Position numbers and translations under genes: made by a program
Shown here: positions 28,641 through 59,972 of the stretch, piece after piece
Layout: the number at the start of each line of letters is the position of its first letter
Numbering within the stretch: position 1 is the stretch's first letter
Assembly: GCA_973895155.1 (NCBI GenBank)
Contig: OZ316892.1
Location: forward strand, 21,081,619-21,145,618
Length of the DNA: 64,000 nucleotides
Direction: 5' to 3'
From: Marsupella aquatica
Taxonomy: Eukaryota; Plantae; Marchantiophyta
Notes under the pieces: generated by a model
Database searches by the model: none
What the model saw: the letters and a program-made list of their open reading frames with translations, nothing else
Told to the model about the DNA's origin: nothing

Positions 28641-29247
28641 ATCTCCTCTGTGGAGGCCATGGCCTGTAACCCCCTCTGGCAATGGGAGGAAAGTAGGGGA
28701 ACCAATCCCCAAGTGGGGCTAGTCTAGAAAACACATTGCTATGAAAAGCTAGAGTTGGGGTCTAGGCTTCTAGAGTGACTTTATGGGTCCCACCCAAATT
28801 TATGTGGATGGAAAAAAGGATGAGATCTTACTATAAAAGCGCCAACTGAAGTCTACTTTTAAGAGCCTTGGTCTAGAGTGAAGCCTCTAGACCATAACTC
28901 TATGATCATCATATGCATGGGAAAAACTCATGACATGACTATGATGTATGTCAACTTGTACATGCAAGTATTTTATATTCATAAATATGGGCATTATGGC
29001 CCCACCACAACATATGTGCATAGAAGATGGATGTGCATATAAAAAGACTGATGTGCACATAAAGGAGAATGACATATTATATATGACTATTAAAATGATG
29101 GGTTTTTTTAATCATTTTAATCTTCAAAGAATATGAATAGAGAATATATTTTGATAATATATATTTCTATTGTCCTCTCCGCTATTCACGTTCAAAGAAC
29201 GGGTAATCGGGGCTAGTAGTATCATGTATTTCAAAATGATGAATGAT

Positions 29248-29270
29248 CAGTCTATTCATTAAAACTGGAA
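29248..29270 (+). repeat. Left TIR of the outer DNA transposon
   Basis: cagtctattcattaaaactggaa, inverted match to 59950-59972. Confidence 0.85.
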
Positions 29271-30143: not shown

Positions 30144-33100
30144 TTACTCAACAATCCCTTCCATGTAGGTTTTGAGTGTTTTCAAAATATTCTTGGGAAT
30201 GGTCAAACCTCTATCAATTATATTTTCTTCTCTAGAGCGTGACTTGAATCCATACATAGCAGAATTAGCAAATTGCCAACGTTCAGTGGCACTGTCAAAC
30301 CCAGGATCCACCTCCCAAGTCTTAGTGGTCTGAAAGCAACGTGAATATCGCACATGATCCGGTGCATCATGCTTACCATGTTTAGGCCTCCACCATTGCA
30401 CTTGGAACATAGGAGCATACCGTGTACTAGTAGGAGAATTCTCATTGCATTGCAAGTCTCCTGAAGGAACTTCATGGTTTGGGTCCACAACACCCAAAGC
30501 TCTCACCAACCAGAAACGTTCTTTCCCATTCTTCTTTTCCCATTCATCCTCTGGACGGAGAAATACAAAGTGACCTTCTTGAATATCCTGTAGAGGAATC
30601 CAACGTGCAAGTTCTCGCTCGTGTCGAGCGCCAACAAATGTTGCAGCTTGATCCTCCATCTCTTCCAGGTACTCATTCTGAAGCTCCACCATTTGTGGAT
30701 TTTGTGTACTACTACTAGGCTCCCCCAATGGTTCAGAGGTTCCTGTACTATTAACCTTGTAACCAATTCCGTGGTTGGTTTTTGGCGAGAATTCATATGT
30801 CAATGCTAACTGTATTTCTGCCTCCCCTTCAATTGTAAGCTCCCCAGATAATACTTGCACCACCATCTCCCAATATTTCACCAAAGGAAACCGTTCACGA
30901 TATGCTGTAGAGGTCTCATCCTTACAACTCTTCTTCAAAAACTCAATGTAACGATTAAGGAATGGGATGATTTCTTCAACCTTGCCTCGTACATCCCCGG
31001 AGATGGGTTTTGCAAATGGTTGACCTTCTGGTAAAATGAGAGCATTGGTGTTGGAATCAGTTCTCCAAATAGACCTTCCGGTTAAAGGGTACCAAGGTTG
31101 TTTCACATGTGCTTTGTATTGATATATTGGAATATTATCTCTCATAGAGAAAAGAAATGCCACTGGTTTTGAGTGACCCTCTATGTCTTTTACCTTGAAA
31201 GTTTTCAAAAACTCTTTGTAAGTTGCAACCTCTTGGATCAACCGTGGGATAGGATGAATGCTTTCACACTCCCAAACCTCAGCCATCAACCCCAAGAGGG
31301 TAGAAACCTCCTTGTACTTCACTTGGTTGGATACTTTCAAAAACAATGCATCGACATCCTCATGGGTGTGACCAACCATGAGAAACGACATCTGCACTGT
31401 TTCAAAAACCCCTCTACTAACAAGCTCACTGCAAAATGCCATCACGTACTGGTTTTTGTTATCTTTCCCTGAATTATCCATTTGCAAGGTCAGGTGCCTT
31501 GGCAATGGTTTGAAAGAGGTAGACGTAGCCTTGGGATCAACACCAAAGTCGTCTTGGTCATCTTCAGCTCCTTGAAATCTAGCAATTGAGACTTTTTTGG
31601 GTTCTAAGTAACCTGCGAGAAATGCTTCAAAGTCCAAAAGAGATTGAAAAATTGGCCTCGTTGCAGCCCAATATAATCCTTCAAGGAGGTCTCCAGATTT
31701 TTCCCCCTTGTAATCCTCCAGATCTCTAAGGCACTTGGCCAATGATGTCACTGTGAAGTCTGCATCTCCCGGCCAAAGCCCAATGAAACTGAAGTGAGCA
31801 TACACAGAGATTTTTGAGGAGGTATACTCAAAAATGGAATTAGATGGCTACGTGAAGGTGAGTGAAAACACTATGTATAAACTCTGGAGTGAGTCCTTCA
31901 TGAATTTTGACTTTCACAAGGGAAGTGCATTTGCAAAGTGTACACTTTGCACTGAGTTCAAAGATCAGTTGATGCGGGAGAAGAGAAAGAAAGAGCGTTT
32001 AGAGATTGAGGAAAGAAGAGCTCGCCATTTTCGTGAGCAAATGTCTAGGAGATATGTTTACTATGCTCATAGGGTTCTTGGAAAGAAGGATCCTGAGAAC
32101 TATCTTTGCATTATACATGACAAGATGGACCAGGCCAAGACATGGATCCCTAGGTTGGTCCCCACTCCTAAATCATTGTCTGGTAGTGGTCAACCGCTCC
32201 CCATTGCGCTCATTGGGATGTTGACCCATGGAAGGGATCCCGGAGTTTCTTCGTGAAACAAGATGGAAGTCTGTACTCAACCGTGTTAGTCCCGTGAGAC
32301 CCTCCATAGGGAAGATGCGGCATGGGTTCTCCGTTTTGGGTTAGAATGGACTCCAACAAAGCACGAGCATGCAAGGTGCTTCCCCGTGTCTTGTGTGAAC
32401 CCTTGTTTCCATGGAATCCAACCGTACAACCTGCTTCATATTGATTTTTGTAATCATAATACTTGGCAGTGTTGAATCCATGCATTCTAATAAATGCACC
32501 CTTGCAAACAAGTCTACTTCTTACAAAGAAATATCCTTTTGTCTCCACTTCCTTCTCCCTACAGCCAAAAAGAGTGAGAATGTGACTGGTTTTGTTGTCG
32601 CTTGACATCCCATGGTATTCCCTCCTTATCGCCTATAGGTCTTCTCTCGGCATGCTGAGGCAACACTTCAACTTACAACAACCTTCTCTTTGGATGGAGT
32701 CAATTTCCTCCTCTATGATTTTTAGTATCGCCCGAGACTCCAAGTGCTTCTTCCTTTTTTCATCTGGGTTAACCTTCGTTCTCTTGATGAAGTTATACTG
32801 GCGCTTTGAAAAATCAGTGTCACCTTTCATATCTACCTCTAGATGATCTCGACCATCAATAATTGGTTTCAAAGAAACCTCTTCAATGAGATCTAGAAGA
32901 AAAATACCCTTTGATATCAACAGAAGTGAACGAACGGCCCACCTAACAAGACCAGGCACTCCTGGGGAGATATTTGGGAAAAATAGAGGGTCAATCACAC
33001 GTGTGACAGCAACCCCAACGTGATCTGGTCCAAGAACATCATCATCAATTGCACCTGACTCGAAAGGAACTGTGATGATGCCAACCCCCACTTTGGTCCG

Positions 33101-33860
33101 ATTATCCTCAGCATACAATTCCACCTCCTTGGTCATCCAATTAGAACGCAAACTATAATCCTTGAAATTATAATTTGCAAAAACATCCCGTGTGGACAGG
33201 TTGTTTAGCATATCCTAGGAAGAACTCCTCCGAGTAACATCCTTTAAATTCCAGAATACAAAAGTGTCCAATGCTTCCTGAACGGTATTGGCTCCATTGT
33301 GAGGAAAGGGTAACCTCTCCCTTCCTTGAAAAACTTCACATATTTTCACACTAATCCTAGAAGTGTCAAGACTTTCATTGTGACAGGTCTCATCGGGATT
33401 CGTCTTGAACACAAATCCACGAGCCACAATCTGATTGCCGATCCAGAGCTCAACTTCATCGCCAGATATAATTGAGTCTCCAAAACTTCCCACCGAAGAT
33501 TTGTCTGGTACAAAACCGGGAACCGTATCCTTTGTAGAACAAGAGGCATCCATTTGTGTTGTCGCTGGAGTTGACTGACTTCAAATATGCAAAAGAGGCA
33601 TCCCAAATAATGCAGGAGTCGACAGCATCAAATAGGGTCCTGATCGGCGGCAAAGGGTAAGGAATTTCCCATGATCCCTCATAGCACTTCTCAATGAGAA
33701 CTCCTATACGATTACTTCCCAAATCAACATTACGCACTGAGTCACCCGGGTCAACCTTGAGGACGGTCCCGCAAGCAACTTCCACTCCGTTGATTACGAG
33801 GCAAACCTTGTCCCCTCGAAAAAAATCCCCATTTTGAAAACGTGGTCCAAACTGTTGGAT
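30144..33860 (-). pseudogene. Sola-like/DUF7869-type DDE transposase with three N-terminal Tnp1/En-Spm-like domains; disrupted by two TAG stops, a frameshift and an inversion
   Basis: CCKLKCC; VCKGAF..HG; YRLPSCFTKK; FAKCTLC..H; CIIHDKMDQAK; LTLQMDNSGKDNKNQYVMAF; FLMVGHTHEDVDALF. In-frame TAGs at 33215 and 32633. Segment 31806-32246 lies on the + strand. The 5' end is uncertain. Confidence 0.8.
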
Positions 33861-35227
33861 GTAGTTACCTCGAGATGATCTCGAGGTAAAGTGACTACAA
33901 AAACAAACCAAAAAACCCAAGTATAGAAGTTTATCCCACAAAATTGTGTGATAGAGAAAATAAGAAACTCTTCTACCTCGAGACGATCTCGAGGTAGAAG
34001 AGGGACCAAAAACTCCAATATGTAAAAATTCAGAAGTATTTAGCTCGAGACGATCTTGAGGTAAAATATGAAATCTCACTGAATAGCGAATTCAGATTCT
34101 ATACCTCCGACTCTCTACAAACTCAATTATAAGAAGGACAACCGAATGCACCATTAGCTAGAAGGCAAAAGTTAATAATTTTGAGGATCAAACTTATGAC
34201 TCGAGATGATCTCGAGCCAAAAAGGACATTGTATTTGACAAAGATACTATTATGAATAATAAGCCACCCAAAATAAGAACATATAAATGGCTCTAGATGA
34301 TCTAGAGGAATGATTTGGTGCAATTAAGAAAGTAGGCTCCCAGTTTACTTCCAAACACTGAGAAATAGCTTCTAAAAGGCCATCAAATAGAGGGAAAAGG
34401 CTTCCAAATGGATTTTGACTGACACTAGTATAAGCTGAAAAGGTTTGGTTTTCTAAAAGATAGGAGCTCAATTATTTTAGACCTCCTTCAGGGCTTAAAA
34501 TGAGAATTTCTCGAAATATCCTAAACACAAACGTAGAGTCCACAACCCTTGAAAAGAACAACAGAAAGAGATCAGAGCAGAAATCTAGAGTCAAAGAGAG
34601 GGAGAGGGAGAGGGAGAGAGAGCAGAGAGAGGCAGAGGGAGAAACGAGCGAGCAATGAAACAAAATGAGAAGAATGACCCGCTGGAGACCAAAGAGAAGC
34701 AATATATAAAACCCTGACAGACAAAAAGGCCAATAAGACGGCTTGGTTGAACTTGTGTCACGGCTAAACTCGCGGCAGGGCAGAAGTACGGATAACAATA
34801 ATGACAACACGTGTGACCGTAATAATGACTGTACGCACCTAGCAGGTTGCGCGGCAGTCTGCCTGAGCCTGCACAAGCCCTGGCACGCTTGGCACGACCA
34901 AGGCCGACCCCCGAGGGGCTTATAGTGGCATCAGGGGTTTTGAATTCCCCATTTTCACATTCGCCTCCTCGCCTCCTCGCCTCCTCGCCTCCTCGCCTCC
35001 TCGCGTCCCTTGCCTCCTTGCCTCTAGATTGTTTTGCGCTCTTGCCTCGAGATCCTTGTATTAGCCTCGAGATTGCAGAGGGTCAAGATTAGGTTTTTTC
35101 CTCGAGATTTTATAGGGTCAAGATTTTGTGTTTAGGCTCGAGCTTCGATAGGGTCGAGATTTTCTATTTAGGCTCGAGATTTGTTTTTAAGTTCTCAGCC
35201 CATAGTACGTTCCTCTCTTCACCAGCC

Positions 35228-38200
35228 ATGTCGACTGTTGTAGATTTCTCCAAGGAGGACTTCGCTGAGTACAACCTTGCAACCGTTGGCGAAGAGCTTC
35301 AGACCCATCTAGACTCAGCACATCAGATCCATCGCACCATTAAACGTAATTCATCATCTTTGTTCTGTTTAGGTTTAACTCGAGATCGTCTCGAGCTTCA
35401 ATTGGTCGACTTGTTTCTGGATTCCTTGGATGCAGTTGAGGCTCGAGATCATCTCGAGCCTATTGATGTTTTTTGCAATACTTTGCTTCAAAAGTTGTGA
35501 TCTATCAATTGATTTTGCATTTGATGTAAGTGGCATGAGGCTCGAGATCGTCTCGAGCCAATATGCAATTCCTGCATGTGACCTAGTGAGATTTCTTCAA
35601 GTTGGAAACCCTTATCCTTCAAAAGTGAAACATCATATCCAAAATATCTAAAATTTCCTTCCTCCAGGGACTTCTGTACCCTCCAACTCGTTCTGATCAT
35701 TGACATCCGAACGGGTTTGTGGTATCAGAAGTCAATGGAGAAAGTGGATTTTAATCATTGATTGAATATGATGTTCATTGTTGAATATGATATTCGGATC
35801 ACTCGTTTGACATGTTAGGCTCGAGATCGTCTTGAGCCAAATATATCCCTCACCATCTTCCATTATGGTCATTCGTATCCCTTGGCCAATTTCTTCCAGT
35901 TGGAAGGATTCCATGTCGTCTACTTCAATTACTAATATCCTTTTCATGGTGATCCAAGCTTGCCTTTTGGACCACTTTCTTAGTCATCCAACTCGTTTGT
36001 GAAGATGACAAACCACTAAGTTAGAGGGTTTTGAATGTGGTCGAATAGGTGACATTGGATCATTCTTGAAAATGTTGTTCGTTAAATTTGACTGGTTCAT
36101 GATATGCAATGGAATAAAACCTCAACTGATATATATGAGGATCGAGATCATCTCGAGCCCTTGTCTTTTTCTTTTAAACAGATGGTGGCTCGAGATCATC
36201 TCAAGCCTATTGTGTTTCCTAACTATTGTGTTATCTTTTTAGATTTCTTGGGTTTAAAATCTCTTTTTAAATTCCACGGATGAAATGGCATTGGAACATG
36301 TCAGACTATTAAACTTAAAAGGAAGATCGAGATCATCTCGAGCCACCTATTTGTTTCTTGGTTTTGTAGTACATGTTTTTGACAATTGCTACATTTTGGC
36401 TGTACCAGGTGTGAAATTGGGATCGCCTAATTTGGTAGTCGAAGATGAACATGCAATTGAAGTTTCCTGCCCTGGACAGGGTTTATTTGGATTCTGTTGG
36501 GCCATTGAGCTTGCTGAAACTGAAGACATGGAAGGAACTATTATTTGTGTGAAGACGAGGTCTCCATCAGTCGATCCTCTAGTGTGCAGCCTTCTAGGGC
36601 TTATTGTTTCTATTGTGACGAGTAACGGTAAGGACATGGTTTTGACGGTGGAGAACCATGAGACAGGGAAGTGGGCTCTAATTAGACTTCACGCCAAAAA
36701 CTACTCTTGCAATCTTAACATTGAACGTGCAGCCAGGAAACAACTGAGCATGATATCAATGGGGTTCTTCCCCGAGGGTTTTACTACAAGTAATTTACTA
36801 GAAGATACTCCTATATCTGGAGCGGACATAATTTTTGGATTCCTTTATTGTCGAAAATATGGGTTTGATCGTGATGATGCATTCACGACTCCTTTCACGT
36901 GGAAGGTTTTGAGACTAATGTCGGAATCCAAATTGGGGGAGTTTGAATCCATATCCCCTGATTTTGTGTTTGGAGCCGGAGAATTTGACGAGGATGCTTG
37001 TAAAAAGTGGGTGTTGTCTCATCGGAGACAAACAGGTAAATTGAAATCTGTAGCTGCGGGAGACAAGACATCCGGTTTGGACAAAAAGGAAGCAAAGGTG
37101 TCTCAAAAGAGGAAGAGGGTTGAGAAACCCGAAAGCAAAGCGAAGAAGGCTCCACCTCAAAAAAAGTCCGCGCCGCCCAAGGTAGATCTCATTCCGGCAT
37201 CTTCCTCGGGTGTGAATGCACATACCGATGATGATGGCACTCCAGGAGATGCTCCGGGAGAAAAGAGCGTTAAGGAAGGAGCCGAACTTCTTAAGGAGAT
37301 TGAGGAGTATTACACATTTGGCATGAATGAAACTTTTGATATTCCTGTCACTAGTATAGATTTGCCGTCTGCAGTTTTGGTATATAGGATGTTCAATAAG
37401 ACCATGCCATGGAGGTCGCAAAATCCATGGTTAGAAACCCTGGAATGGTACCAGCTGTGGCGGATTTAATTTCGTATTCAAGAGAGAGTTTGTAGTTGCT
37501 CCATTATGAGAATACTGCTAAGGATCGAAAGGAGTTTGAGTGGGGTGTTAAGAATAAGAAGGTGCAGTTCCTTGCAATCAGTGGACAACACTCGGCAAAG
37601 GCAGCTGTTTGGATCATAGGTTGGGCTAAGAGCGATGCAAAGTTGAAGGAGGTCGCGAAGAGTCTGCAATATCGAAAGTCACAAATTCTTTCGGACAGAA
37701 CTCCAAGAACAATACTTGCTCAACACTCACAAAGGGCAAATGCTATTAATAAGACCATGGAGTATGAGTCTTGTTTTCTTGATACTATGGTCCATGCCCA
37801 TTGATAGTTTGACGAGTGTGGCCGTCCGGAGAGACCCGTGATTGGGTCCAATAGACTAACGGATCATCAAAAGTTCCAGGTAAATTCAAACTCAAATCCA
37901 CTTCTAGCTCAAGATTGTCTCGAGCCTCGAGGTCAAGTTTCTGTATTTGATTTATCTTCATGTATTCTCCCATAAATTTTACCATAGTTCTTTAATTCTA
38001 CCTCGAGATCGTCTCGAGCCTCAGATTTTCTTTGTACTGTTTGGATCAGGATTTTATGGCCCTTGCCAAAATAATGACTGGAAAATCCGATCTAAGGAAT
38101 ATTTTTTGGTTGCTATTTTCGGATGAGAACCTCTTCCGAACTTGGAGACAAATGTGCATCAATTGGGTCAAGGGACTTCTTCCAGATGGTCTAGGGGAGT

Positions 38201-39767
38201 TAGGTTAAAAAAAAAACGGGAAATCCCGGACAATAAAAATGATTACGCCGGCATTGTTTAGATGCTTTGAAGGAGATCTAAGTAGTGACGACATTCTGAA
38301 AGTTTTTACTGTCGTTCAACAACAGAAGATTTTATTGAAGAAAGACCCAGCCAACAAATCTGATGTTCAATCAATGAGTGATATGGCTCATACTTTCAAA
38401 GTCATGACCAAGCTGAGGGCAAAAATTGTGGAGTACTTTGTTTTGAAGTATCCGGATCGGTTTGCCAATTCACTCACTTGGTTTGAGCTAACTCAATTTT
38501 TGCCTGCATTTATGGATCGTGGTGAGTTGCCGAAACTTAGACAACTTGCTGGAGAGGTTTGGATTTCCAACCTCCTAAAAAGAAATAGGCCAAAAGACCC
38601 ATTTCCGCAAAGTCTCATTGTTAGGCTTGAGCAGATATATTGCAAGGTATTTGGCGGGTTGCCTTCAATGGAGGATACTCCTTATCGCACATTTTTTAGC
38701 GATAATTTGATGAGGACAATGAAGACTGAGATTGTTGACTCGGTGCAAAGGATGTGCCCACTCTCCATTGTCGATTTTGGTCGTCTTCGACAACGGCAGT
38801 GGACAGATGCCGAATTTTTTGTCTTGCTGGAGTATTGTTTGCAGATGGCAAACTCGACGGAGCTCTTAGTAATCATTTTTGTCCATCAAGGCCCATTGAT
38901 AGGCCAGATTCAGAGTGCCTTTGAAAATATTCATCGTGAGAAGAAAGTCCACACGAAGCTGGAGTACAGGAGCTACTACCGTGATCAGCTGCCCAAGGAG
39001 GAGGGAGATTTTCTCATTGGAGCCCAAGACTCAATCATCTTTGGGGGAATTTGTTGTGAAGAGGAACCAGACTGGTCCCAAATTTTCTTTGATGACTTTT
39101 ATGCGTTCTGGAACTACAGTGAGAAGTGGGACAAAGACTTCACAGTCTTGCCTTTGAAGGCCCCTACTGGGAACAACAAAGACCAATCAAAGGGGAAAGA
39201 GAAGCTCGATGAATCCACTGTTGATGTCAAAGTTTTGGAGAAGATGACCCCATCTTATGAGATGGTCGGTCGGCGTGGTGGCTTTGTAAATCCAAGAGCA
39301 AAGCCTTTGCGAATGACAAAGCGTCTTGTTGATTATTTCTCGTGCCCAGGTCATACAGTATTGGATTTCTTCTCTGGAGGACAGACATTGAAAGCTTGTG
39401 TCATTCTTGGTCGGGATTGTTTTGTGTATTCGGACACAGCTCAAGAGATGGAATTCACAGAAGCCTTTGCTCAGCTCCTTCATGACAACAAGCAGGTTTT
39501 ATATGTGCCACCCAAGGAGCCGTTATCATCTGAGGAAATTACTGCCGGTCCCCTCGTTGTAATAGAAGAGGCGGCCTTAGACATAGCTCCGGTAGAAGCC
39601 AGTGTTTATGAGGAAGTATTTGCGGAGAATTTAGAGCATCGCAAAACGGAGGGCCCGAAAATCACAAGCTACATGGAAGAGAAGGGTGAAATACTGCCTG
39701 AATTTGGAAATGATGCTCGAGATGATCTTGATGTTCCAGGTGTGCCTTCATCGGGTGACCTTGGGGA
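35228..39767 (+). pseudogene. Cargo gene, 5' part: ParB-like domain plus N4/N6 DNA methyltransferase-like domain (multi-exon, decayed)
   Basis: DIPVTSID..RMFNK/DHAMEVAKSM..FLAISGQHSAKAA (ParB-like); NPRAKPLRMTKRLVDYFSCPGHTVLDFFSGGQTLKACVILGRDCF (beta-class MTase motifs X/I). Intron 37880-38049 is in phase. One frameshift at ~37399 and stops at 37493, 37802, 37805 and ~38206. The 5' exons are tentative. Confidence 0.65.
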
Positions 39768-40112
39768 TGTTAGGATTTACTCTTAGGTCTAGAGTTACGA
39801 ATGTACCGTAGTTAAAACTAACCTTAGTCGCAGACTTGGTTAGGTTAGTCATGCTGTGCACACTCTATAACCAAGCGGTGTTTGCTTGGAGAGGTGGAAC
39901 TCAGGCTCATTGTTACGGAGCCAGTTGAGAGATAGGGAGAGCTTGTGCTGTGGATGCTTGGTATGGCCGGTCGGCCTAGAGTGTAGTAAAGCTCTTGTGT
40001 GTTCCCGTGGACGTAGCCTCATGTGGAGGTGAACCACGTATCTCTCTGTGTCGACTATTGTGCGTTGGATGGTTCATGGGCTTGCCATTACGATCGTCGT
40101 CTATGCTCAACA
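39768..40112 (+). repeat. 5' LTR (345 bp)
   Basis: tgttaggatttactc...ctatgctcaaca; about 9 substitutions and 1 indel versus the 3' LTR by manual comparison. Confidence 0.97.
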
Positions 40113-40114
40113 AT

Positions 40115-40126
40115 TGGTATCAGAGC
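40115..40126 (+). other. Primer-binding site (tRNA-iMet)
   Basis: TGGTATCAGAGC 2 nt after the 5' LTR. Confidence 0.95.
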
Positions 40127-41044
40127 ATGTCTGGGAGGTGACGTGTATTTGTGATGGTTTTTTCCAGTGTTGAGTGTCGGTGGATCACCCGGAGTTTTGT
40201 CGCATGGAACTTGGAGTTTATGGGCTCAACGGATAGATCGGGGCAAGAGCTTTCTAACGGTGTGAAGAAATCGTTGAACGGAGCTCGTGGTGCAGACACA
40301 ACTACATTTTGACTCAACTTAACGTTGCCTCACAACAGGCTAATCTCGACGTATGAAACTCTAAACGGAAACACGGAATCCCCAAGGTAAAATTGGCAAC
40401 GTTCTGGACGTCTATATTGACGTGGTTTCTTACGTCGTCTCACACAATGCACATTGCCACACCGCCAACGTGGTTCTTTGTGTGCACGACGTCCTATGCA
40501 TCGTTAGAGTACTGGGCTAATGTAGATTTCCATGTCCATTGAACGTCGCACGAAGTGACGTTAATACAAACAAAATGTCGTGATTGACGACGTTGACTCC
40601 CTCGTATAAGACAACGTCAATGTTTGTAACGATGTCTGGGACACCGTTTCGTTTGATGTAATGTGAATTCGTTCATTGGTTTACGTGGTGTGATAAGACG
40701 TTGTTATCATATATCGATGTCATGAACGACATTGTGTGAAAGTGGAAGACTACGTCTGGGTCATACCTTGTGAGATGCTTGGTAACTTTATGAATGAACG
40801 ACACCCCGTATATTATGTCGGACCCTGCCATACAACCTTATTGGAGGTTATAAACACACTTAAGCTAGGGTTACAATGGGGTGAGTATTATTTGGGTAGG
40901 CAATTGGGGTTTAGGGATACACATTCAATATGCATATGGTATAGACGTTGTAATCCGCGAAAAGTGTGGTATTAGATAATATTGTTATGGGCCAAATATG
41001 TACAAAATGGAGGATGAAGTTGGGCAAGTAAAATAGGCTATACC

Positions 41045-43209
41045 CTAGTCACGCTCAGTCCGCCTGGTATCACGTCCAGACCTGCGTGTAGAAGTGGGTT
41101 GTACGCCTCTCGTGCGCAACTCGTACCTGGAGTCATCCTCCTCTAAGCTAGTGGTACTGGGGGACAACGTATCTGCCTGTGTTGCAGCCCTATGAGTAGT
41201 CACTGGCCTACTCCCCTTACTGTGTGGAGGTCGCCTAGTGTCATCCCTCCTCCTCCTCTCCCTCTCCCTCCCCCTCCGTCTATCTGACCTATCTCTCCCT
41301 ATCTCCCTCTCTCTCCCTCCCTTGGCTCTCTCTCTCCCTCCGGCCTTGGCCACTAGTACGCCCCCCATGAGTCTCTGCCTCCTCCTGCCCGCAATCTACG
41401 TGAGCCTCCTCCTGCAAACCCTCCTCGGGCGGTACCCTGGCTGGCAAGTGATCCTCAGGGATGGCCCGTGCAACCAAGCCCTCCGGAGGAGTCCAATCCT
41501 CCACCTGCATGATAGCATTCTGGTCAGTTAATGTCACAGAGTAGGCCTAAAGTCAACTACAACCTAGCAATCACTTTAGCTCTTACCCGGTGATCCTCCG
41601 GGACTGAGGCCAACTTGGCCCATAGCGCTGCCGGGCCATACCGTTTCGAGTACAGCCGCTCCTCCTCCGACGGCTTGGCATCGACACCAAACTTGCGTTT
41701 CTGCGAGAAAGCAAAAGAACGTCGTTCCTAAGCACGTATTCAACCCTCTCAGCATCGGTGCTAACGTCGTTCCATGCGTTGCATATCTAGTTAACGTCGC
41801 TCTAACGACGTTTTCACTAAAGCGGTACATGTAACGTCTCAAGGATGACGTTCTTCCTAAGGTACGTCTCAGATGAAGTTACAAATCAAAGTTAACGTTG
41901 TTATGGACGACGTTATGAATGAATCAGGCGACGTAATTTCAAAATCTCGACGTTACACTATGGTTTACACCAGAGCAGCGAAATGAAAACGTGGAAGTTG
42001 GGTCCGAGACTTACGTAGGTTGCAAGGAACCCTCGCCATCCTCCTTGCCCCCAGAAATTGGTTACTAGAAGGTGTCCGCTATTCTTTCGAGCTGCAGTGG
42101 CTTTGTCACCCATGTGCACTCGTTTTCCTACTGGGGTGTCTGGGGGTGCTTCAAGTTCAGACACGATCAAGTTGAAGTCCGACTTGGCCATCCCTTCAGG
42201 CTTACGGTACTGCCCTGTCTTCTCGCATTTCATTGCTCGGACCTTGCTTCTCCACCTGAATCTTCTGTCAGCAAGGAAACTCACAATCTTCTGCCTGATG
42301 TGTCGAAAATCAATCTCTCTGCCATTCTTGAATCCGGCCTGTATGTCATTGAGGAGTACTTGAAACTTCTTTGTATTGTGCACGAGGTCCTTCCAAGTCG
42401 TCCACCCAGGGCAGTATTTCGTACAGCAGACCTGCACTCGATTCGTTAGCGCCTTCTCATCAAGCACCTCTGGCTTCGCATCAAAAGCAGCCAGGCTGAT
42501 GACCGGCAGTTGTTCTTTGCTGGCAGGAGTAGCAACGCTTCGGTGAGGAGAAGCTCGCCGACGACCTCCTCCGATTGAATGTGAATGTCGATGTGACCTT
42601 CGACCTCTCCTATCTCTGTCCACCCTCGAATCTCATTCAGCCCTTTTTCTCTTGTGTGTGCTGCGGCTGTCTCTTTCTCTGCGCTCCTTTCCCTTCCCCT
42701 TTTTTTTGTCTCCTCTCAATGCTACTATTGCTACTCAAAGAACGGGAACGACGTCGCCTTCTGTGTGTCCGCAACTCTGTACTTGAATCATCAGGCTCAT
42801 ATCTCTGAATCCTCACTTGGCTCTTGATGGGAGTAACACAGGGTGGTTGTGAATCCGGCTCCATCCCAGAGAATGAGGGATAGTCCCAGACTGAGTCCAT
42901 CAAGGGCGGGAAGGAAGCAAGAGGATCAAGTGATGCCCCCGGAAGGTCGCGCAAGAACTCTGGTGCTTGAATGTCGGGCTCAACGTCGGATGCTGGAGCG
43001 TTCTCTTCTATGTTCTGAAGGTATTCCAAAAATCGTGACTCCTTCGTCCCAGTTCCTCCCATGAATTGCCAACTCTGATTGAAAGCATCAATCAGTGAAT
43101 GTGCTGACCGCAAAGCTGTTCGAACCTTCTCCACCTCCTCTGGGTCTTCCATGGAAACTTTCACAGCATCAAAGTTGATACTGAGGGGCAGATAAGCTGG
43201 ACGTGACAT
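41045..43209 (-). pseudogene. TnpA/Ptta-like accessory ORF of the CACTA element (one frameshift at ~42630-42710; downstream exons ~41700-41587 and 41519-41045)
   Basis: WTTWKDL..FLADRRFRWRSK..KATAARKNSGHLLVTNFWGQGGW resembles plant Ptta/En-Spm ORF2. GT-AG sites at 42014, 41701, 41586 and 41520. Charged low-complexity tail. Confidence 0.5.
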
Positions 43210-43727
43210 TGAGGCGAGACTTGGAGCAAATGTAGATGACCTTCACAAAGATTAGAGCTTCACTAGAGCTTCACTAGAGCCACAAACAGAACAGAACACT
43301 AGATGTGGGGTGAGGTGTGTGCGGAATGGTCGAATGACTCACATTCGACACTATGCCCCGGTATTTTCCGAATAGAATGCGGCAGAGTTCGCAACAATGT
43401 GTTTCCGCCATTCTCTGTCTATTTACGTCATTTTTCACGACGATGCCCTAATTGATCGATTAGTAATACGTTGTGCTAGACGACGTTTTCATTTAAACGT
43501 TGTTCTGTACACCGTTAAAAGGTAGGGTTTACTGTAACGTCGTGTGGGGTACGGTACATGACGTAGGGTTTAAGAAATATGTCGTGTATTGTGTTCTCGG
43601 CGACGTAAAGTGAAAGTACTTTGTTTTACTTGACGTAAATATTGTGGTACTATAGTGGTCCCGACGTTCCATTTCCAAGGCTGAGTTTGCAAGTTTGCGT
43701 GTATATGTGTGTGTACTATTGCAGGCC

Positions 43728-45211
43728 ATGGCCTCGTGCTCATCGGAGTGGTCATCTGATGATCGCTATGATGGAGGTGCACATCACCAAGACAGGTACC
43801 GCTCTCATGATAGGGGGAGGGAGAGGAGGAGGGAGCACTCACCTGCGAGGTCGAGATACCACTCAGCCGAGAGGAGGAGGGACTTATCATCTGATAGGAG
43901 CAGGCACCATTCGTCTGAGAGGAGTTGGGATCAGTCTTCAGATAGGGAGTACCGATCTAGGGATCATCGACATCGGGAGCGACGAAGGCATAGGAGGTCC
44001 CATCGACAGTCCCACCGCCACCGCCGGTCCAGGTCTCCCTCTGATGACCACACACCCCGACACCGATCACCCATGCCGGAGGATGAGGATAGGTTTGGAG
44101 AGGCCATGGCTGCCCTTCAGGGGATTGGCCCAGTCCGAAAGATGCCCTGCCCATGTAGTAGATGCAAGGGCGTCGTCTCCCACGAGAGGACCACTGTCCT
44201 TAGCCATTTAGGCCTCCACGGCCGTTACGTACCCCCGACACATCAGGTAATTCATAAACCTTTATTGACACTATTCAATTCATTAAGTCCTTATTTTTGA
44301 ATATAACATGTTTGGGTTTCTTGAGTTTCTTGAGTGTTTAGTTGGAATGGTTTTTTCCCTGATTTCTGAAGTTCTCTTGTTCACATGTGAAACAGATTTT
44401 GTGTGTGGTCTCTCCGCCCTTGGACCACATGAGATAGGTTGCACGTCGCGCGCTCACAGCACTAGTTCCCCCATCAGCACTCGATGCCACGTTAAGGGCA
44501 ATAGACCGTGTTTTTGATAGGAGGAGGAGGGTCATTCGGAGTCACCCTATTGAGAGGGGAGTAGAGGTCACCACTAGACCTCGGTCCATTACGTCTCGTA
44601 CCCCTAGGACGGTGCCGCCACACTGTCCTTTTCTTGATGCCTCTTTTTCCCGAGCACCAAGAGAGTTAAGAGGGAGAGCCTTGGACATCATAAAGGACTC
44701 ATTCCCAATCCAGTTTGGCCTCCCTATGGTCCTGCTTGTTCGGGAGCCTATTGTAGTTTGGGATAGGCCATGGGTCCTCCTCCCATCCACATTGGGAGAC
44801 GACGTAGGTCTTGGATTATTTGCACTCGTGGATATTGTGGTGCCGGAAGGTTGTGCACCTGAGGACCTGCCCGAGTTGATTCCATTTTATGGGCCAAAGT
44901 ATTCGGCCCATAGATGGCGTATCTTGTCTCGCCAATGCCCAACCTTTGGTCGGTATGGCATGTCACTAAAGTTGGACCCTAGGTATACTCAGATGGATGG
45001 TTACCCCCCTCGTACTGGAAACTTGGCGGGTTACATCAATAGCACAGTGGGGTGTCGGCGTTTGGGGTTCCGCCCCAACGCTGAGTGGCATGAGTACCAT
45101 GACCAGAGTCACCCTCGTTTGCCCTTGGGATGCAGTCACTACATCCTGACACATGCCACCCGCACCATTCGAGCAGGGGATGAGATATTTGTAGACTATG
45201 ATTGGCATTGA
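43728..45211 (+). CDS. SET-domain protein; exons 43728-44246 (RS-rich plus transposase-associated Cys/His domain) and 44438-45211
   Basis: STLGDDVGLGLFALVDI, FYG, GNLAGYINST, PNAEW, HATRTIRAGDEIFVDYDWH. A phase-0 splice gives an uninterrupted frame. Confidence 0.75.
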
Positions 45212-48200
45212 AGATTATATATGTTATTGATCACTTATTCATTACTCAGAGTGAGACTTATATTGGATTCTTTGACCTTCAACCTCATGCACTATTGGGA
45301 ACACATTGTCTAATTTGGGGATGACCTTATCTAATATTGATGTCTTGCATAGGATGGTCCAAATATAACACCTACACCTCATCCATCGATGATGACGGAG
45401 TCAGCCCGTTCGTTCCACATGCGAGCCACATTATCTTTTTCTGACGACGAAGATGTTGAGAGTGATCATGTGCATGAGGACGAGGATGTGGACGAGGATG
45501 TGAATGAGTACCATGATGCACATGATGACGATTTTGATGAAGATGTAGAGGATGATATGGATGCACCTATTCTTGAAGAGGATGCTTTTGCGCACCTTGT
45601 GGACATCCACTTTGGACCTCATGTACCTGAGGGTGACCCTCCTGTCATGGAACTAGACGAAGATGATTGGGACCAATTGGAAACTGAATCCAGGACTCCG
45701 CTATTCCAGGGTTCCCCGACCTCACGGTACATTTCTCTGAGGTGCTATTATAGTTTTTCTACTGTAATGTTGCTTAAGGGTGTGCATAAACCCTAAGTCC
45801 CCAATTGGACCATCCTCAATGGCATGCCTTAAACTAATTAAAAAGCTGGTTTCTTTGTGGTTTTCAATGCAAATGCAGGTTGGGAGCCACACTCTTGATG
45901 TTGAATTTACAGGGGGTTTTCAATGGATCAGATGTCCATACAGATGCACTCTTTGCGTTGTTCCACAACAAACTCTTGCCTCAACCTAACAACCTTCCAG
46001 GAAGTGTGCGGGAGACTAAGAAGTTGTTATCATCTATCGGACTGGCGTTAGAGACTATACATATGTGCCCTCATGGGTGCATCTTGTATAGAGGACCGTA
46101 CTTGGACCTCACCCATTGCCCAATTGAGCGATGTGGCCTTCCACGGTATCGTCCTGATACCATTGGAGACAAGATTGCTGAGAAGGTAATGACATCCTCT
46201 CTGTACCACATCTGTATTTTAGTAATTTTTGACGTACTTTATGGCGTTTTGTGTCCCTTAACGTTGCCCTCGTGAGTAGTACGTCTTTCAACTAGAAGTA
46301 AATAACCCTAACGTCTCCCTTGTGATTTTTACGTCTTTCCATACGACGTTTTTTAGTCCAACGTCGATTTTTGCAACGTAAAAGTTTAGAGAACGTAGAT
46401 CTGCTCAACATGAAACTATAACGTCGTTCTGGACAACGTTCACTTTTAGGATACGTAGTTATGTTCAATACAGAAGTAATACGTCGTATTGAACATCGTA
46501 AAGATTTTTGGAACGTAGTTATCGTCAACGTATTTGTGATGTTAACGACGAAATGCCGCCTCATGGTTGTTGTACATTCAGGTACTGAGGTATTTTCCAA
46601 TCACACCCCAATTGCAGCATCTATACCGGCGAAGACACCTATCCTCCCTACAGACTTGGCATGCCGAGACCAAATCCCTAGCAGGGATAATGCGGTATCA
46701 CCAAGATAGTCCAGCATGGAAGCACATTGATGCCACATGGCCAGATTTTGCTGCAGAGCCACGGAACGTTCGGTTGGGGTTGTCCATAGATGGGGTAAAC
46801 CCATACAAGCAGCGACGGAAACCAAAGTCCATTTGGCCAGTTCTTTTGATAAATCAGAACATCCCTCCATGGTTGGCGATGAAAAAAGGTCATGTTCTCC
46901 TCCTAGCTATCATTCCCGGTCCCGAGGCTTGCAAGAATCCAGATGTTTGCTTGGCCCCAGCTTATGAAGAGCTACATGACTTGTGGGAAATTGGGGCTCC
47001 AACAACAGATGTCACCCGTGCACCGGACAATGGGAGGACATTCAACATGAGAGTCATGATCACCCATTGCACCACTGATGGGCCCGGTAATTCAAAAACC
47101 TTACAAAATGTGATTATATTGTGCTAAATGACTTTATGTCTTCATTTGGCTTCTTTTATTGTGGGAATATGATGGGGTTTCTTTGGCAGGCATGGGCACA
47201 ATATCAGGCTTGAAGGTGGCTGGGTACTCAGGTTGCCCTTCATGTGGCCCTGAGTTGCATGGGAGGTACTCAGTACTATTGCACAAAACCACATATGAGG
47301 GCAGCAGGATGAGATTGTCAATGGATGACCCCATGCGATGTAACACAAGACATTGGGCACAGACTGAGTTAAGACCATGTCCTAATGCGCCTTCAGCAGA
47401 AGCTCAAATTCAAATGGCAGAGATGGTGGAGGCTAAGCTGCTGAAACCCAAAGATTGTGGAGTAAACCGACGCTCAGCATTGTGGGACTTGCCTTATTGG
47501 AGGGTAGGTACAATACACCTATCAAATGTTGTGTATAGATTTTTTCATCAACTCTCATAATGCTAGAGTTTTTCACTTGATTACCATGTTGTGCAAGCAG
47601 ATGCTAAAGATCCGGTGGCTACTGGACTCCATGCACATTGAAGTGAATGTCGCAAAGAATTTGGTGAAGCACATGTATGGTGAGAATGATACTCGTGGAG
47701 TTCGTGTGGATGCAAAGAATGTAGGAGTTGTGAAGAGCTGTTGGATATCAGGTACATGATAAAACATCGATCAACCCTTAATTTGTAAGAAGTTGCCCGG
47801 ATTTGCCTGAAACCCCAAACCCTAACAAGTTGATTCTCTTTAATTATTGGACAGCACGTACTGGGGTGACACCACCAGCCCCTTGGATTTTGCCTCGAGA
47901 CATTCTAAAGGATGTGAATGGGATGATTTGTGAGATGAAGTTCCCGAGCCATTACGGAGCTGGATTCCATGGGTGCACAACGAGGAATGAGTACATCCCC
48001 CCGATAGGGTTGAAGTCCCACGATTATCACAAGTTGATACAGCATGTGCTCCCTGCAGTGTTGCGTTGTTGCGATGATTCTAGAGAGCGCCACCTACTCC
48101 GACTCACAGTGTACAAGTTGTGCTCCATTTTCAGGTTGGAAATATCTTACTCGTGGATTTTGTGGTGTTATGGGACCATAAATTTATGGTGTCTCAAACG

Positions 48201-49597
48201 ACATTCTAGAGAGGATACGTAGTCTCTTAATACTTTACGTCATCTATAACTAGGTAATGTAAAAATACGACTCCACATACGACGTATTCAAGGTCGTATA
48301 AGTCACCCCTCTTCAGGAACATCCTGCAAAGCGACGTTTGTAGGAATCTTAGTAGAGGGAATGTTAGTAGGCATTGAATTGGTAACCATCTTAGCCCACT
48401 TTCAGATTGGGCGGTGATATTTATTCCTGTCATGTTTTTGAGTGCCTCATAGGTGGGTATGTGCCAAGGAGATCAAGGAGTCAGAGATTCCTTTGATGAG
48501 GGAGAGGACGGCGCAAGTGATGTGCAATTTGGAGCGAGTGTTCCCCCCAGCACAGTTTGACATGCAAATGCATTTGCTATGTCACCTGGTGGATGAAGTT
48601 GCCATTGCAGGCCCAGTCCATGCCCGATGGATGTATTGGGTTGAGCGATATATGAAGGTGCTCAAGGGTTGGGTGCGTCAACCCGCTCGACCTGAGGGAA
48701 GTATGGCAACAGGGTTCATTATGTCAGAGTGTCTTTTCTATTCCGGGGGGGTGATAGGGAGTTTGGATAGCAAAGCTCCCACAACTTGGGAAGAGGCACA
48801 AGATGATGACAATGGTGGGCTGCGATTGATGGGTGCGGCCAAGAAGCGATCATTGGATGATGACATCTTTCGTCGACAGATCCATAATTATGTGTTGGGG
48901 AATCGACCGGAGATGTCTGATTGGAGGGAGATGTATAGGTATGGTACTCTAAAATTTTAATCGATTGTGAATTGGATTTGAGAAGGCTGCAAATCTCTAA
49001 CAATCTTGTGACAACGTATTTGGCAGTGCATGGTTGGAGCTTCAAGTGGGAGTTGCGCAAGCAGGTCGTGGCATTGCATCATTTCGTGTCTGGGCTTTGG
49101 AGCGCATGGAGAGGCTCTTGGCTGTGCATGGGTCTACATCCATTCCCATTGATGTACAAAACATCATTAGAGGGCCAGGGATGCGGGCCACAACTCATAC
49201 ACACATGTATGAGTCAGGGCATCACTTTCGGACTTGGAGGACAGACCATATGAAGAAGAGTACTTGTAACTCTGGAATCTTCATGATGACTGATGTAGAT
49301 GATGTAGAGGTTCCTTATTGTGGGACAGTTGTGGACATTTTAGATGTTCATTTTGGGTCATTTGTCACCACTGTACTAGAGGTGAGGTGGCACAAGTCGA
49401 TCATGTCACCCCCAGCGAGAGCTACGATGGTTGCGGATGAGTGTGGTTTTTATCGTGTGGACACAACCCGAGTTGCACCCACAGGGACTGAGTTTAGTGA
49501 CACCATAGTTTTTCCTAGCCAGGTGGATCAGTGCATTATGGTTCCGATGCAGACCATGAGAGGATGGTCCATTGTCATACTAATTTTCCCTCGGTGA
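43728..49597 (+). CDS. TnpD-type CACTA transposase; exons 43728-44246, 45353-45726, 45879-46185, 46582-47086, 47190-47503, 47601-47751, 47855-48134, 48453-48938, 49027-49597
   Basis: CPCSRCK..HL..HG; IHMCPHGCILY..CP..C; LRYFPI..DSPAWKHID..EPRNVRLGLSIDGVNP..SIWPV; TDGPG; DSMHIEVNV; GLKSHDYH; FPPAQFDMQMHLLCHL..GPVHARWMYWVERYM..RPEGSMA; YCGTVVDI..DECGF. All junctions are GT-AG and in phase, and no stops were seen. Confidence 0.88.
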
Positions 49598-50278
49598 AGG
49601 AAGGGCTTCATGGCATCAGTCCTTGCAGACGATGCGGACTGACACTATCCTTCACACCCTCCATTTATATGTATTGGCTATGCCCACCTTCCACATATAT
49701 ATTGACATATGTTTCGACGTTTGAGATCTGGCAAACTGGAGGGAGAGTTGTGCAAAGTTTCTTCTTTCCTCACTTTATAGCTAAGAACACATTAAAAAGC
49801 ATTAAACCTCGGCCTTCGAACAACCTTCAATGGGTCCTAGCACGTAAACCCTTATCACGTAGGCCAATTGACACTTCGAACTTATTAACGTCAACCTCAA
49901 CGTCATTAGACAATCAAAGGTCCCTTATACCCATAATGAAGACGTTAATCTATAGTTACGTCGTAGATACGTTGTACAAACGATGTATACATAGTACGTC
50001 CTTGGTTTACCTTGTAGTAGACGACGTAGATTGTGTTACCGTGTCTTAAACGACGTAAATGTTTATTTAACCATTCTTCTGATGACGTTCAAAGTTTCAA
50101 TCGACGTTACTCACAAAACACATTACAAATATAAATTGCCTGGGAGGGACTTTTTATTCATGCGCTCAGAAACATACAACGTGCACATAAGGCATGAGTC
50201 TGACTCCAGTCTAAACTGATTCCAATCCTAGGCAAATGATGCTCCTCCGTCTCCAGCTGACCTTGGCACTAGTGTAGC

Positions 50279-50839
50279 TTAAGGGGTCCCTTCACCAGAC
50301 CAGTAGTACTCCTCATCTGCCTTCCTCTTTTTGTACGAATCACGCCTATTGCTGGCGTTCCATTTCTTGCGGACCACTGCTTCACCAACCTTCAGCCTTT
50401 CAGCCTCAATCTCAGCTGCACAGCTTTCCTTGTAGTCATACATCACAATATCAAGTTCAGTCGGTGACAACTGACATTTAGCCAACTTTGGTGGACAAGC
50501 CTCACCATCATCATCCTTGGGCGTATTGTCCAGCATCAAATCGTCCCCTGGATGCAGCAAAAACTCTTCTGGGTCCAACTCCTTATTGCCCAGAATGGAG
50601 TACTGTACCCAACAAATCGAGATGAAATGCACGGACTCTGCAAAGTGCTCGATCAATCCAAGATAGTCACTGAAGTGCTCTGTGACTTGTTTCCAGGTAT
50701 TGGCAAGCAAGTATTCCGTCTTTGAGTTACAAAACTTGTCTATCACACCTCCACGACAAAAAAAGCCACGAACAGTCTTGTCTTCTTCACCTAGCGGAAG
50801 AAAACAACAGTGGACATCCTTGAATATCTTACGTACCAT
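50279..50839 (-). CDS. Small BRCT-domain-like protein carried by the CACTA element
   Basis: IFKDVHCCF..RGGVI..KTEYLL..HFISICWVQYSILGNKELDPEEFLL fits the BRCT consensus (F, GG, THLI-like, W..S); basic C-terminal tail. Confidence 0.6.
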   Translation of the reverse strand: MVRKIFKDVHCCFLPLGEEDKTVRGFFCRGGVIDKFCNSKTEYLLANTWKQVTEHFSDYLGLIEHFAESVHFISICWVQYSILGNKELDPEEFLLHPGDDLMLDNTPKDDDGEACPPKLAKCQLSPTELDIVMYDYKESCAAEIEAERLKVGEAVVRKKWNASNRRDSYKKRKADEEYYWSGEGTP

Positions 50840-52547
50840 AGCTAAAGACTTTCAATCTCACTCTGCAAATTCTGTGCACTATCATACCCGTAGGACATCT
50901 GAAATCACGAATGACCTGTGCAGTGAGGTCCCAGTAGCCTTGCCCCAAAAACTCCCGCAAAAAACCTTACGCATGCCAATTGGATTCCATTAACGTCGTT
51001 TCCCACATTGGTCATATACGTCTAACCTCGCCCAACATCCATTATACGTTGTCATAGCATAGTATCCGTTATAGCCACGTCTGAAACGACGTACATCTAT
51101 ACGTCGACCCAACCCTATTTTGCTACACCGTTCGGGACGACGTCTACATGTTTGCCTCGTTATAAAAGACGTAAATAGCCCTATTGGGAGATACGTTAAA
51201 TTAAAGACCCTCTAGACGACGTAAAATGGGAAGGAAAGTCAAATGGGTAAACCCATTTTGGGTTACGACGTAGAGGGAGATGTACTGGGGAGTAACGTCG
51301 TGTCACATGACGCGAAAGGAAGTCACGACGTAGTGAAATGTAGTTGTGAGAGAGATCTAAGTTTTTGTCATTTTGGATTTTGTGAAGAAAGTTGGCAACA
51401 TTCGTGTTCGACGGTTTTTTGGAGAAGGGACCAGAGTTTGTTTTCTTGACGGTTTGAGCTCTACGGCAAAGGAGGCATCGCATGCTGTAGCTCTGCTTAT
51501 AGATCGGGATGAGCTGTTTGTTTTGGTAGCTGATTTGTTACCAAGTGTGTACCGTGTGCGACGGGACGAGCAAAAGAAGCATTCTGATTTTCTGACCGGC
51601 TATGGAGTCCTCTTTTGCCTGATCGGGGTTTCTTGTCGTGGAAATCGACTCGGAGGGAGAAGCGTCAAGTATTTTGACTCAACGGAGAGATTGAGGCAAG
51701 ACGATTGTTTTGAGTCCGGGATTGGCTCTTTGATGCCAAGAGGAAGGCTAAGCAAAATCAATTACCTTGTTGGACTTGGTGACGGCACCAAGTGCAATTC
51801 ATCAACATTCGTTGTTGACAAGGTACCATTTTTTCTCTTTGAAAAACTGATTCAAAATTGGCTATGGCAATTGAGAGAAATCTGTCATCTTTACCAATTT
51901 TTTTCTCTCTTGTTCTTTCCTCGTTTTGGGTGCTTCTTATACCGATCTTCACCGCCTCGAAGTCTAGTTTCCAAATCTGAAATCAGATCTTGATTTCGTC
52001 AAAACCCGAGTGAGATATCTTGCGTTTGGTGTCGAGGGGTACATTCTGCCGTGTGTATTTTCTGCGCGCGTGACCAGATTTCGACAACGAAGGGTGGTAG
52101 GGGGTTTTGGGGGTTCGAGGACACGTGTCAGCCCCTCGATTGTTCTTCCAAAATTCCCATAGGGCCTGTACAAGGGTCATAGAATATTCCAAAAAACCAG
52201 AGAGCTATTTTTTGACCGTCCAACAAAGATTTCATCCGCCGAACGGTAATTTTTTTGGTTCTTTTTTGGCGAGGTCGTAGCCATTGAAGTTGGCAACGCG
52301 ATGCACCGATCACATCACAATTCCGATGACGGGTTGTACTTCATATTTTGGTTATTCCTTGAGGTGGTCAAAACGGGGGAGTTTCCCAAGGTTTTACCCA
52401 CCTCGATCAAAATTTGAATAACTTTTCCGTCAAATTTTGATTTTGATTTTCAGTATTGGACTCCTAGCTTTGTGGGCTACGCGGCGGTGTTGAATTTTGA
52501 GTTTTTAGAGAAGTTGTGAAAAACGACATTTTTTGTGATTTTCTCAT

Positions 52548-56860: not shown

Positions 56861-57040
56861 GGTTACTTAACATTTGTGTAGATACTGAGATATGCTCTTG
56901 CTCATTCCTTGTATAGGCTACGACTTAGTTTTGGTCTACTCTCGTATAAAGAGGGAAAAATTGGTTTGGTTTTTCTTTCCAGAACTTCCCGCTGAGTAGT
57001 CATATTGATAGCAGCCTTTACCCTCACCTAGACCAGAGTC

Positions 57041-57050
57041 AAGGGGGAGA
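57041..57050 (+). other. Polypurine tract
   Basis: AAGGGGGAGA immediately before the 3' LTR. Confidence 0.9.
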
Positions 57051-57051
57051 T

Positions 57052-57397
57052 TGTTAGGATTTACTCTTAGGTCTAGAGTTACGAATGTACCGTAGTTAAG
57101 ACTAACCTTAGTCGCAGACTTGGTTAGGTTAGTCATGCTGTGCACACTCGATAACCAAGCGGTGTTTGCTTGGAGAGGTGGAACTCAGGCTCATTGTTAC
57201 GGAGCCAGTTGAGAGATAGGGAGAGCTTGTGCTGTGGATGCTTGGTATGGCCGGTTGGCCTAGAGTGCAGTAAAGGTCTTCGTGTGTTCCCGTGGACGTA
57301 GCCTCATGTGGAGGTGAACCACGTATCTCTCTGTGTCGACTATTGTGCGTTGGATGGTTCATGGGCTTGCCGTTGCGATCGTTATCTATGCTCAACA
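57052..57397 (+). repeat. 3' LTR (346 bp)
   Basis: Direct repeat of 39768-40112 followed by TSD GGGGA. Confidence 0.97.
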
Positions 57398-57402
57398 GGG
57401 GA

Positions 57403-59949: not shown

Positions 59950-59972
59950 TTCCAGTTTTAATGAATAGGGTG
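59950..59972 (-). repeat. Right TIR of the outer DNA transposon
   Basis: ttccagttttaatgaatagggtg, inverted match to 29248-29270. Confidence 0.85.

Follow-up and report, generated by a model that had tools for sequence, protein, structure and literature searches.

A predicted methyltransferase-shaped domain with degenerate catalytic motifs in a probable helper gene of a palindrome-carrying liverwort DNA transposon

The window analysed, 64,000 nt of the liverwort Marsupella aquatica (assembly GCA_973895155.1, contig OZ316892.1, positions 21,081,619 to 21,145,618 of the forward strand), hosts a multi-copy DNA transposon which, leaving aside a retrotransposon inserted in it, is about 13 kb long. 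A DUF7869 transposase-like gene and a spliced helper gene are arranged head-to-head in the element. By mapping homologues onto the window with tblastn, the helper gene could be resolved into an N-terminal domain, a ParB-like domain, a helical region, a pseudo-methyltransferase domain, and then a NIF-like domain. Coordinates refer to the window.

29243..29270, plus strand: candidate left arm of the terminal inverted repeats, its outer limit blurred by a high-depth repeat next to it
30144..34091, minus strand: DUF7869 transposase-like gene (PF25273, E=7.9e-39)
32837..39732, no strand: 16 palindrome copies, 12 of them within 33869-36342, between the two divergent coding regions
36285..37259, plus strand: N-terminal region of the helper gene, a domain plus a Lys-rich linker in the same reading frame; start approximate
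37260..37879, plus strand: ParB-like domain, ISGQHS at 37577-37594 (tblastn of homologues, Atlas)
37880..38049, plus strand: GT-AG intron, phase 0, with two palindromes at 37908 and 38002 (homologue mapping, sequence)
38050..38658, plus strand: the large exon begins here, with an all-helical region that is conserved family-wide (tblastn of homologues; confident helical model in the homologue P0155)
38659..39516, plus strand: predicted beta-class amino-methyltransferase-fold domain with degenerate motifs (PF01555, AlphaFold, Foldseek, VIA, alignments)
38761-38784, plus strand: motif IV position
39289-39306, plus strand: motif X
39361-39384, plus strand: motif I
39409-39435, plus strand: motif II
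39517..39767, plus strand: acidic linker after the methyltransferase fold, interrupted by the copia insertion; in-frame palindrome at 39716
39768..57397, plus strand: Ty1/copia-type LTR retrotransposon insertion of about 17.6 kb (LTRs 39768-40112 and 57052-57397, GGGGA on both sides)
57398..57943, plus strand: the gene resumes after the insertion with a small conserved C-terminal domain, stop at 57943 (residues 683-807 of the Calypogeia homologue P0002, 46% match)
58145..59523, no strand: three more palindrome copies (58145, 59267, 59507)
58193..59272, plus strand: NIF/FCP1-like HAD domain, a separate ORF in the window (PF03031, E=8.6e-17)
59950..60010, minus strand: candidate right arm of the terminal inverted repeats (28 nt; complementarity to its left counterpart 89%), also the candidate right edge of the element

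The window copy of the helper gene is a pseudogene, killed by a frameshift near 37397, by four stops (37493, 37802, 37805 and 38206, the last a premature codon at 38206-38208 in the helical region) and by the copia insertion. Sister contigs carry one base more near 37397 and are free of the frameshift. Most differences between the window copy and the sister contigs are transitions, as would be expected for a methylated, silenced copy. The two copia LTRs differ at 10 of 346 columns. Genes of CACTA type (Transposase_21, SET and DUF4218 matches) are nested inside the copia and do not belong to the host element; among them, a SET-domain ORF (44438-45211, plus strand; PF00856, E=5e-5) lies just upstream of the Transposase_21 exons. 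The LTR family of the copia is extremely abundant in the sequencing runs, its summed depth being far above that of any other part. The DUF7869 gene, which may encode a Sola1-type transposase, is broken in the window as well, the segment 31803-32246 being inverted, with opposite-strand joints at both ends in sister contigs. Three similar beta-rich repeats at 32633-34091 (minus strand) precede the DUF7869 core; they have no Pfam match, and resemble small domains of TNP1/EnSpm type found in plant transposons. The linkage of the helper and DUF7869 genes was seen in this window only; metagenome scans for the flanks of homologues yielded none, only a coding-only contig of 1.8 kb (L001) devoid of the palindrome.

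The candidate terminal arms measure 28 nt and match at 89%, the outer end of the left one is blurred, and no target duplication, which in Sola-1 transposons measures 4 bp, was found around them. Contigs of run X1 covering 29786-59792 have a depth of 304-439 (2-10 differences), against 17-20 in flank contigs, and depth drops to the flank level after about 60010. This suggests some 20 close copies of the element, depth being no formal copy number and X1 possibly being the window's own sample. More distant families of the element occur in other sequencing runs. The left end abuts a high-depth short repeat (28740-29230), which has many different left flanks at 28825 and carries a hairpin, GGTCTAGAG-N6-CTCTAGACC, near 28871-28894; the repeat is possibly a MITE or a Helitron-like end. 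A 104-nt repeat, 81% identical in its two copies (27569-27672 and 63099-63202), flanks the element, and frameshifted ORFs at 1734-4754 (plus strand) resemble by eye the reverse transcriptase and nuclease of non-LTR retrotransposons. A bacterial or phage source for the window was dismissed, as it contains an intron and ORFs of copia, CACTA and LINE-like type, and as the homologues with a name come from liverworts.

A preliminary description of this DNA had pointed to two peptides, and proposed a beta-class amino-methyltransferase fold with shortened motif I and replaced motif IV. It made no mention of the context, a domain internal to a spliced ParB-like fusion gene on a DNA transposon, nor of the pseudogene state of the window copy. 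Both peptides are encoded in one stop-free frame of 525 codons (38209-39786, plus strand): NPRAKP...LDFFSGGQTLKACVILGR at 39289-39414, and LSIVDFGR at 38761-38784, where DPPY is expected. The proposed fold is borne out by profile and predicted structure alike. The ORF matches PF01555 with 28.7 bits (E=1.6e-6), above the cut-off of 26.7, and the match is confined to profile positions 159-207 of 221, corresponding to the C-terminal motif X-I part; among the homologues scanned, only P0010 and the canonical-looking P0138 pass the cut-off. The top PDB match by sequence is M.RsrI (E=0.0028 with the single protein, 1.9e-9 with the family profile). The AlphaFold model of 38659-39516, built on a 74-row alignment, has pLDDT 87.3 and pTM 0.87. 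CcrM ranks first in Foldseek (E=1e-8) and in VIA (Z 17.9, rmsd 3.4, 217 aligned residues), where it is followed by M.BceJIV (Z 16.1), M.RsrI (15.2), M.PvuII (14.8) and N4CMT (14.7), with METTL3/MTA1 near Z 11; the model of the homologue P0155 also matches CcrM with Z 17.9. METTL14 and MTA9 chains are found, at lower Z (9.2-9.3), among the structural matches. In Foldseek and VIA the match of the predicted structure to beta-class enzymes spans the whole domain, in the permuted order in which motif IV precedes motif I.

The second strand of the model (E35-39) is LSIVD, and ends in Asp39. In a global profile alignment with seven canonical domains IVD pairs with the ITD of ITDPPY, and PPY is left unmatched. 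The window reads DFGR at this position, and fails therefore the (D/N/S)-P-P-(Y/F/W) test for motif IV; its motif I is one residue short compared to G-S-G. A global alignment to a narrow set of phage sequences suggested a D-T-P-Y (38674-38685) as motif IV. This register was discarded: most homologues carry E-P-(F/Y/W) at that place, and the canonical domain starts at model residues 5-8 in structural alignments (CcrM 3, MboIIA 1), so that D-T-P-Y precedes the first strand. The window domain is thus predicted to have the beta-class amino-methyltransferase fold but fails the catalytic-motif tests, and is not classed as an active member.

A word search found two relatives of the domain, one from Calypogeia fissa (39% identity). 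The profile made from the window and these two, all three degenerate, retrieved 187 proteins at E<=0.001, the best 150 of which were used; seeded in this way, it may have under-sampled intact relatives among the best 150 of 187. The 22 relatives looked up include nine from Riccia sorocarpa, one from Calypogeia, and one cluster with generic JGI methylase names; among the matches listed, the closest named relatives of the helper gene are from liverworts (Calypogeia, Riccia). No relative of the family was found in a scan of viral sequences, and the word search, weak evidence on this point, gave no longer fused relatives.

Replacement of motif IV and shortening of motif I, already noticed in the window, extend to the family. 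Once the canonical-looking rows P0135 and P0138 are excluded, Asp is found at the motif IV position in 41 of the 45 rows covering it among the matches listed, Pro in either of the next two positions in none of the 45, an aromatic residue at +3 in one. The motif I loop is one residue short in 62/62 rows among the matches listed, which fail the F-x-G-x-G test, and 30 of the 62 read exactly DFFSGG. Again among the matches listed, the motif II acid is present in 0/56 rows, 19 of which carry an Asp one place further on, the motif X Lys is kept in 52/54, and the F-S-G-G columns are kept in 48/53, 41/53, 45/52 and 46/52, respectively. Family rows are 12-51% identical to the window domain. A quick tree, drawn from 28 of the 74 family rows (46 short rows were left out), places all 28 on one side of a branch against seven canonical domains (SH-aLRT 99); in it, Riccia proteins form three deep, long-branched groups, and the window sequence is nearest to Calypogeia and other rows. 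The tree has long branches, takes its canonical rows from phages and metagenomes only, and shows no donor. Judging from the sequences, the motif change is family-wide, old and maintained, rather than a decay of the window copy, because near-fixed columns persist in spite of the low identity of the rows, and the Riccia groups are deep.

The data could be alternatively explained by hypothesizing that a captured bacterial methylase gene is merely decaying, and that its altered motifs serve no function. The frameshift, the four stops and the retrotransposon insertion in the window copy are in line with such a process, as is the fragmentary state of many homologues. The recurrence of the same substitutions in deep lineages, the persistence of the conserved columns, and the sister contigs free of the frameshift make it very improbable.

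In N4CMT the motif II acid (Asp301) holds the SAM ribose, the G-S-G-T loop binds the SAM carboxylate, and the target base is contacted at the corresponding motifs (PMC10406627, accessible part); changing SPPY to APPA abolishes the activity of the enzyme (PMC8885841, in the portion available). Catalysis has probably been lost in the family. Binding of SAM is doubtful too, since the motif II acid and the full motif I loop are absent family-wide. The notion of a catalytically dead DNA/SAM-binding module, put forward in the preliminary description, survives therefore for the probable loss of catalysis, and is weakened for its SAM part. In principle, the protein could still be an active enzyme with altered chemistry or substrate, still able to bind SAM or a similar cofactor and, through the retained Asp and Lys, to modify a DNA, RNA or protein substrate. 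The frequencies reported above for the motif IV Asp, DFFSGG, the motif X Lys and the Asp following motif II, all among the matches listed, would suit an enzyme of this type, as would the available text of PMC12477816, where a relative from Ectocarpus is described as a predicted N4C/N6A methylase. Yet, the Pro-Pro-aromatic residues, the full motif I loop and the motif II acid, missing throughout the matches listed, are the points at which N4CMT and CcrM contact cofactor and base (PMC10406627, accessible part), and the ParB-like and NIF-like domains also lack signature residues, as fits a set of pseudo-enzymes. A changed chemistry looks consequently quite improbable.

The assignment of the N-terminal part of the helper protein to a ParB-like type is tentative. 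In the Atlas, residues 55-260 of P0155 lie close to DUF3723 clusters of fungi (0.95) and to one ParB_N cluster (0.91; 35% of members); DUF3723 is a conserved cargo of Starship elements (bioRxiv 2021.12.13.472469, part seen). The secondary structure is compatible with ParB/Srx, but the model has pLDDT 37-74. The region has no match in Pfam, PHROGs or NCBIfam, and does not match a phage ParB-type profile (probability 0.05); no ParB appeared in the matches listed for the 1009-residue model, which holds the ParB-like domain together with other parts of the protein, nor in PDB profile searches. SGQHS is found in the window and in all four proteins covering the site. It is similar to DGQHR-type signatures, but has Ser at its end, where ParB/Srx-type signatures have Arg (DGQHR, DGQQR, GCHR; PMC4619093, accessible part); 11 further rows with SGQHS were chosen by that motif, and hence add no weight. 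The region upstream (36285..37259) has no Pfam or NCBIfam match. Its domain (36285-37070, plus strand) has Atlas look-alikes mostly in fungal and other eukaryotic clusters (0.96, with a low recognition score; weak evidence), and a possible counterpart, identified by eye, at the start of the Riccia protein P0145. At the opposite end, the NIF-like domain is fused to the methylase-like protein in the predicted homologues P0069, P0121 and P0133. Despite the strong PF03031 match it fails the DxDx(T/V) test, the window having DLNK in place of DxDxT, and P0078 and P0133 DVEG. Up to three domains of one element, methylase-like, ParB-like and NIF-like, look catalytically disarmed.

The element is marked by a 17-nt palindrome, CTCGAGAT-N-ATCTCGAG. 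Allowing up to three mismatches, 19 copies reside in the 13.1 kb of the element, and none in the other 50.8 kb, both flanks and the 17.6-kb insertion being free of it; none was found either in 10 resamplings per region. Mirror symmetry characterizes the invariant positions, and the central three are variable; at 34291 and 59507, symmetric double changes preserve pairing. Such a pattern would suit a binder with two-fold symmetry, or else a hairpin. In the Calypogeia homologue P0002 the aligned place has RDRLE, one peptide reading of the palindrome; the RDxLE peptide occurs twice against 0.47 expected, and up to three times in shuffles, which is not significant.

Plant DNA transposons often contain internal repeats, scattered along the element, to which transposase-side proteins bind. 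It might likewise be the transposase, or its N-terminal repeats, that reads the palindromes, or the palindromes might work as hairpins; the pseudo-methylase might then be a partner protein, such as an inactive subunit that accompanies an active enzyme of the host, in the manner of METTL14 or MTA9. The pairing-preserving changes and the variable central bases are compatible with a hairpin and with a dimer site alike, and METTL14 and MTA9 are indeed among the structural matches. Against this alternative, the sites cluster between the genes and in the helper intron rather than at the element ends, and none occurs in 29235-32836; moreover, published ParB-like accessory genes have adjacent arrays of inverted repeats (bioRxiv 2025.02.11.637652, in the part available). 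This alternative is rather unlikely.

We hold it highly probable that the domain is a non-catalytic part of a transposon helper gene. As to its role, the explanation that we favour overall, with a confidence slightly better than even, is that the methyltransferase-shaped domain belongs to a helper which recognizes the palindrome of the element, and controls its expression or silencing. Intact copies would encode a non-catalytic, probably dimeric, DNA-binding protein. Beta-class enzymes are dimers, and for this reason the methylase fold may have been retained as a dimerising or DNA-holding scaffold. The helper protein, and not the transposase, would read the palindrome, and control the expression of the element or counteract its silencing, a role suggested by the location of 12 of the 19 sites between two divergent genes. 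Taken alone, the proposal that the protein regulates the element which encodes it by binding the palindrome has somewhat less than an even chance. A pure scaffold need not keep the motif IV Asp, found in 41 of 45 rows among the matches listed, which is a point against a scaffold role. A bolder version of the helper hypothesis envisages a liverwort self-recognition system of parS/ParB-like type: fused disarmed enzymes (ParB-like, amino-methylase, perhaps FCP1-like) would load on the palindromes, and shield the element from host silencing, the old methylase pocket reading or covering methylated bases. This is unlikely; if true, land plants would have a second anti-silencing system of the self-targeting kind, made of bacterial parts and unrelated to VANDAL/VANC. 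VANC, an accessory protein of VANDAL transposons, attaches to motifs of the element that encodes it and acts against silencing, and may offer a working analogy for the helper; to our knowledge it has neither a methylase nor a ParB fold.

Several known systems share traits with the liverwort helper. CcrM, M.RsrI, M.BceJIV and M.PvuII have the same fold and motif order as the window domain, but retain the (D/S)PPY, the F-x-G-x-G and the motif II acid which are replaced in the family. Green algal cases are reportedly covered by Iyer in 2011. A similar design is that of Sola1-1_Ec32 from Ectocarpus, where a gene for a ParB-like plus N4C/N6A methylase protein lies opposite the transposase, the best match of which is given as Sola1-1_PPa_tp (PMC12477816, part seen). 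The Ectocarpus gene, which we compare by description only, is presented as coding for a predicted methylase, and the part of the article available is silent on lost motifs and on palindromes; in the window family, in contrast, degeneration affects motifs IV, I and II throughout, the methylase-like part is followed by a NIF-like domain, and homology places the host among the land plants. In Plavaka elements of Bostrychia, inverted-repeat arrays located beside a ParB-like gene (PAG3) are proposed binding sites (bioRxiv 10.1101/2025.02.11.637652, accessible part). PAG2 and PAG3 are also transposon cargo with PF01555 and ParB-like domains, respectively, but from what the same text describes the two domains reside in separate genes, are fused to SET and 2OG oxygenase, and travel on EnSpm/Plavaka elements. 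Bacterial-origin beta-class folds in eukaryotes include, as the available portions of the reports tell, MpDN4MT1a/b of Marchantia, itself a liverwort, and N4CMT of bdelloid rotifers (bioRxiv 2021.02.12.428880, PMC8885841, PMC10406627). These are active SPPY enzymes working for the host, MpDN4MT1 without extra domains and N4CMT with a chromodomain, whereas the window family resides on a transposon, has a ParB-like domain fused to it, and is devoid of SPPY.

The design of the accessory gene is thus already known from a Sola-1 transposon of Ectocarpus, and the non-catalytic liverwort version with its palindromes is apparently new. In the literature within reach, most subscription journals lying beyond it, no paper was found that deals with a liverwort family of this kind, with the loss of catalytic motifs from proteins of this type, or with the palindrome. 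As far as their accessible parts go, the two algal studies (PMC12477816, bioRxiv 2025.02.11.637652) propose that ParB-like/methylase accessory proteins attach to the elements which carry them and mark these chemically. The liverwort family keeps the fold, presumably under selection, and loses the catalytic and cofactor motifs, and its job would hence be binding, not marking. The window provides a candidate binding site in a host group amenable to laboratory work, which makes the self-recognition idea directly testable. In addition, PF01555 matches in bryophyte genomes need not mean writers of 4mC or 6mA like MpDN4MT1.

Phage proteins in which a ParB-type domain is fused to an N6_N4_Mtase, encoded beside terminase genes (as in Fusobacterium phage Funu1), have the same domain order as the window gene, and are plausibly the ancestral type. 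They keep DPPY, however, and their N-terminal profile failed to match the ParB-like part of the family, so that no donor is shown. ParB-Tls loci are reported in the available part of PMC4738411. The P0138 cluster, a protein of 185 aa, combines a canonical motif I with a GGxVxxNPCQKP segment resembling that of the family, and is a possible bridge to active relatives.
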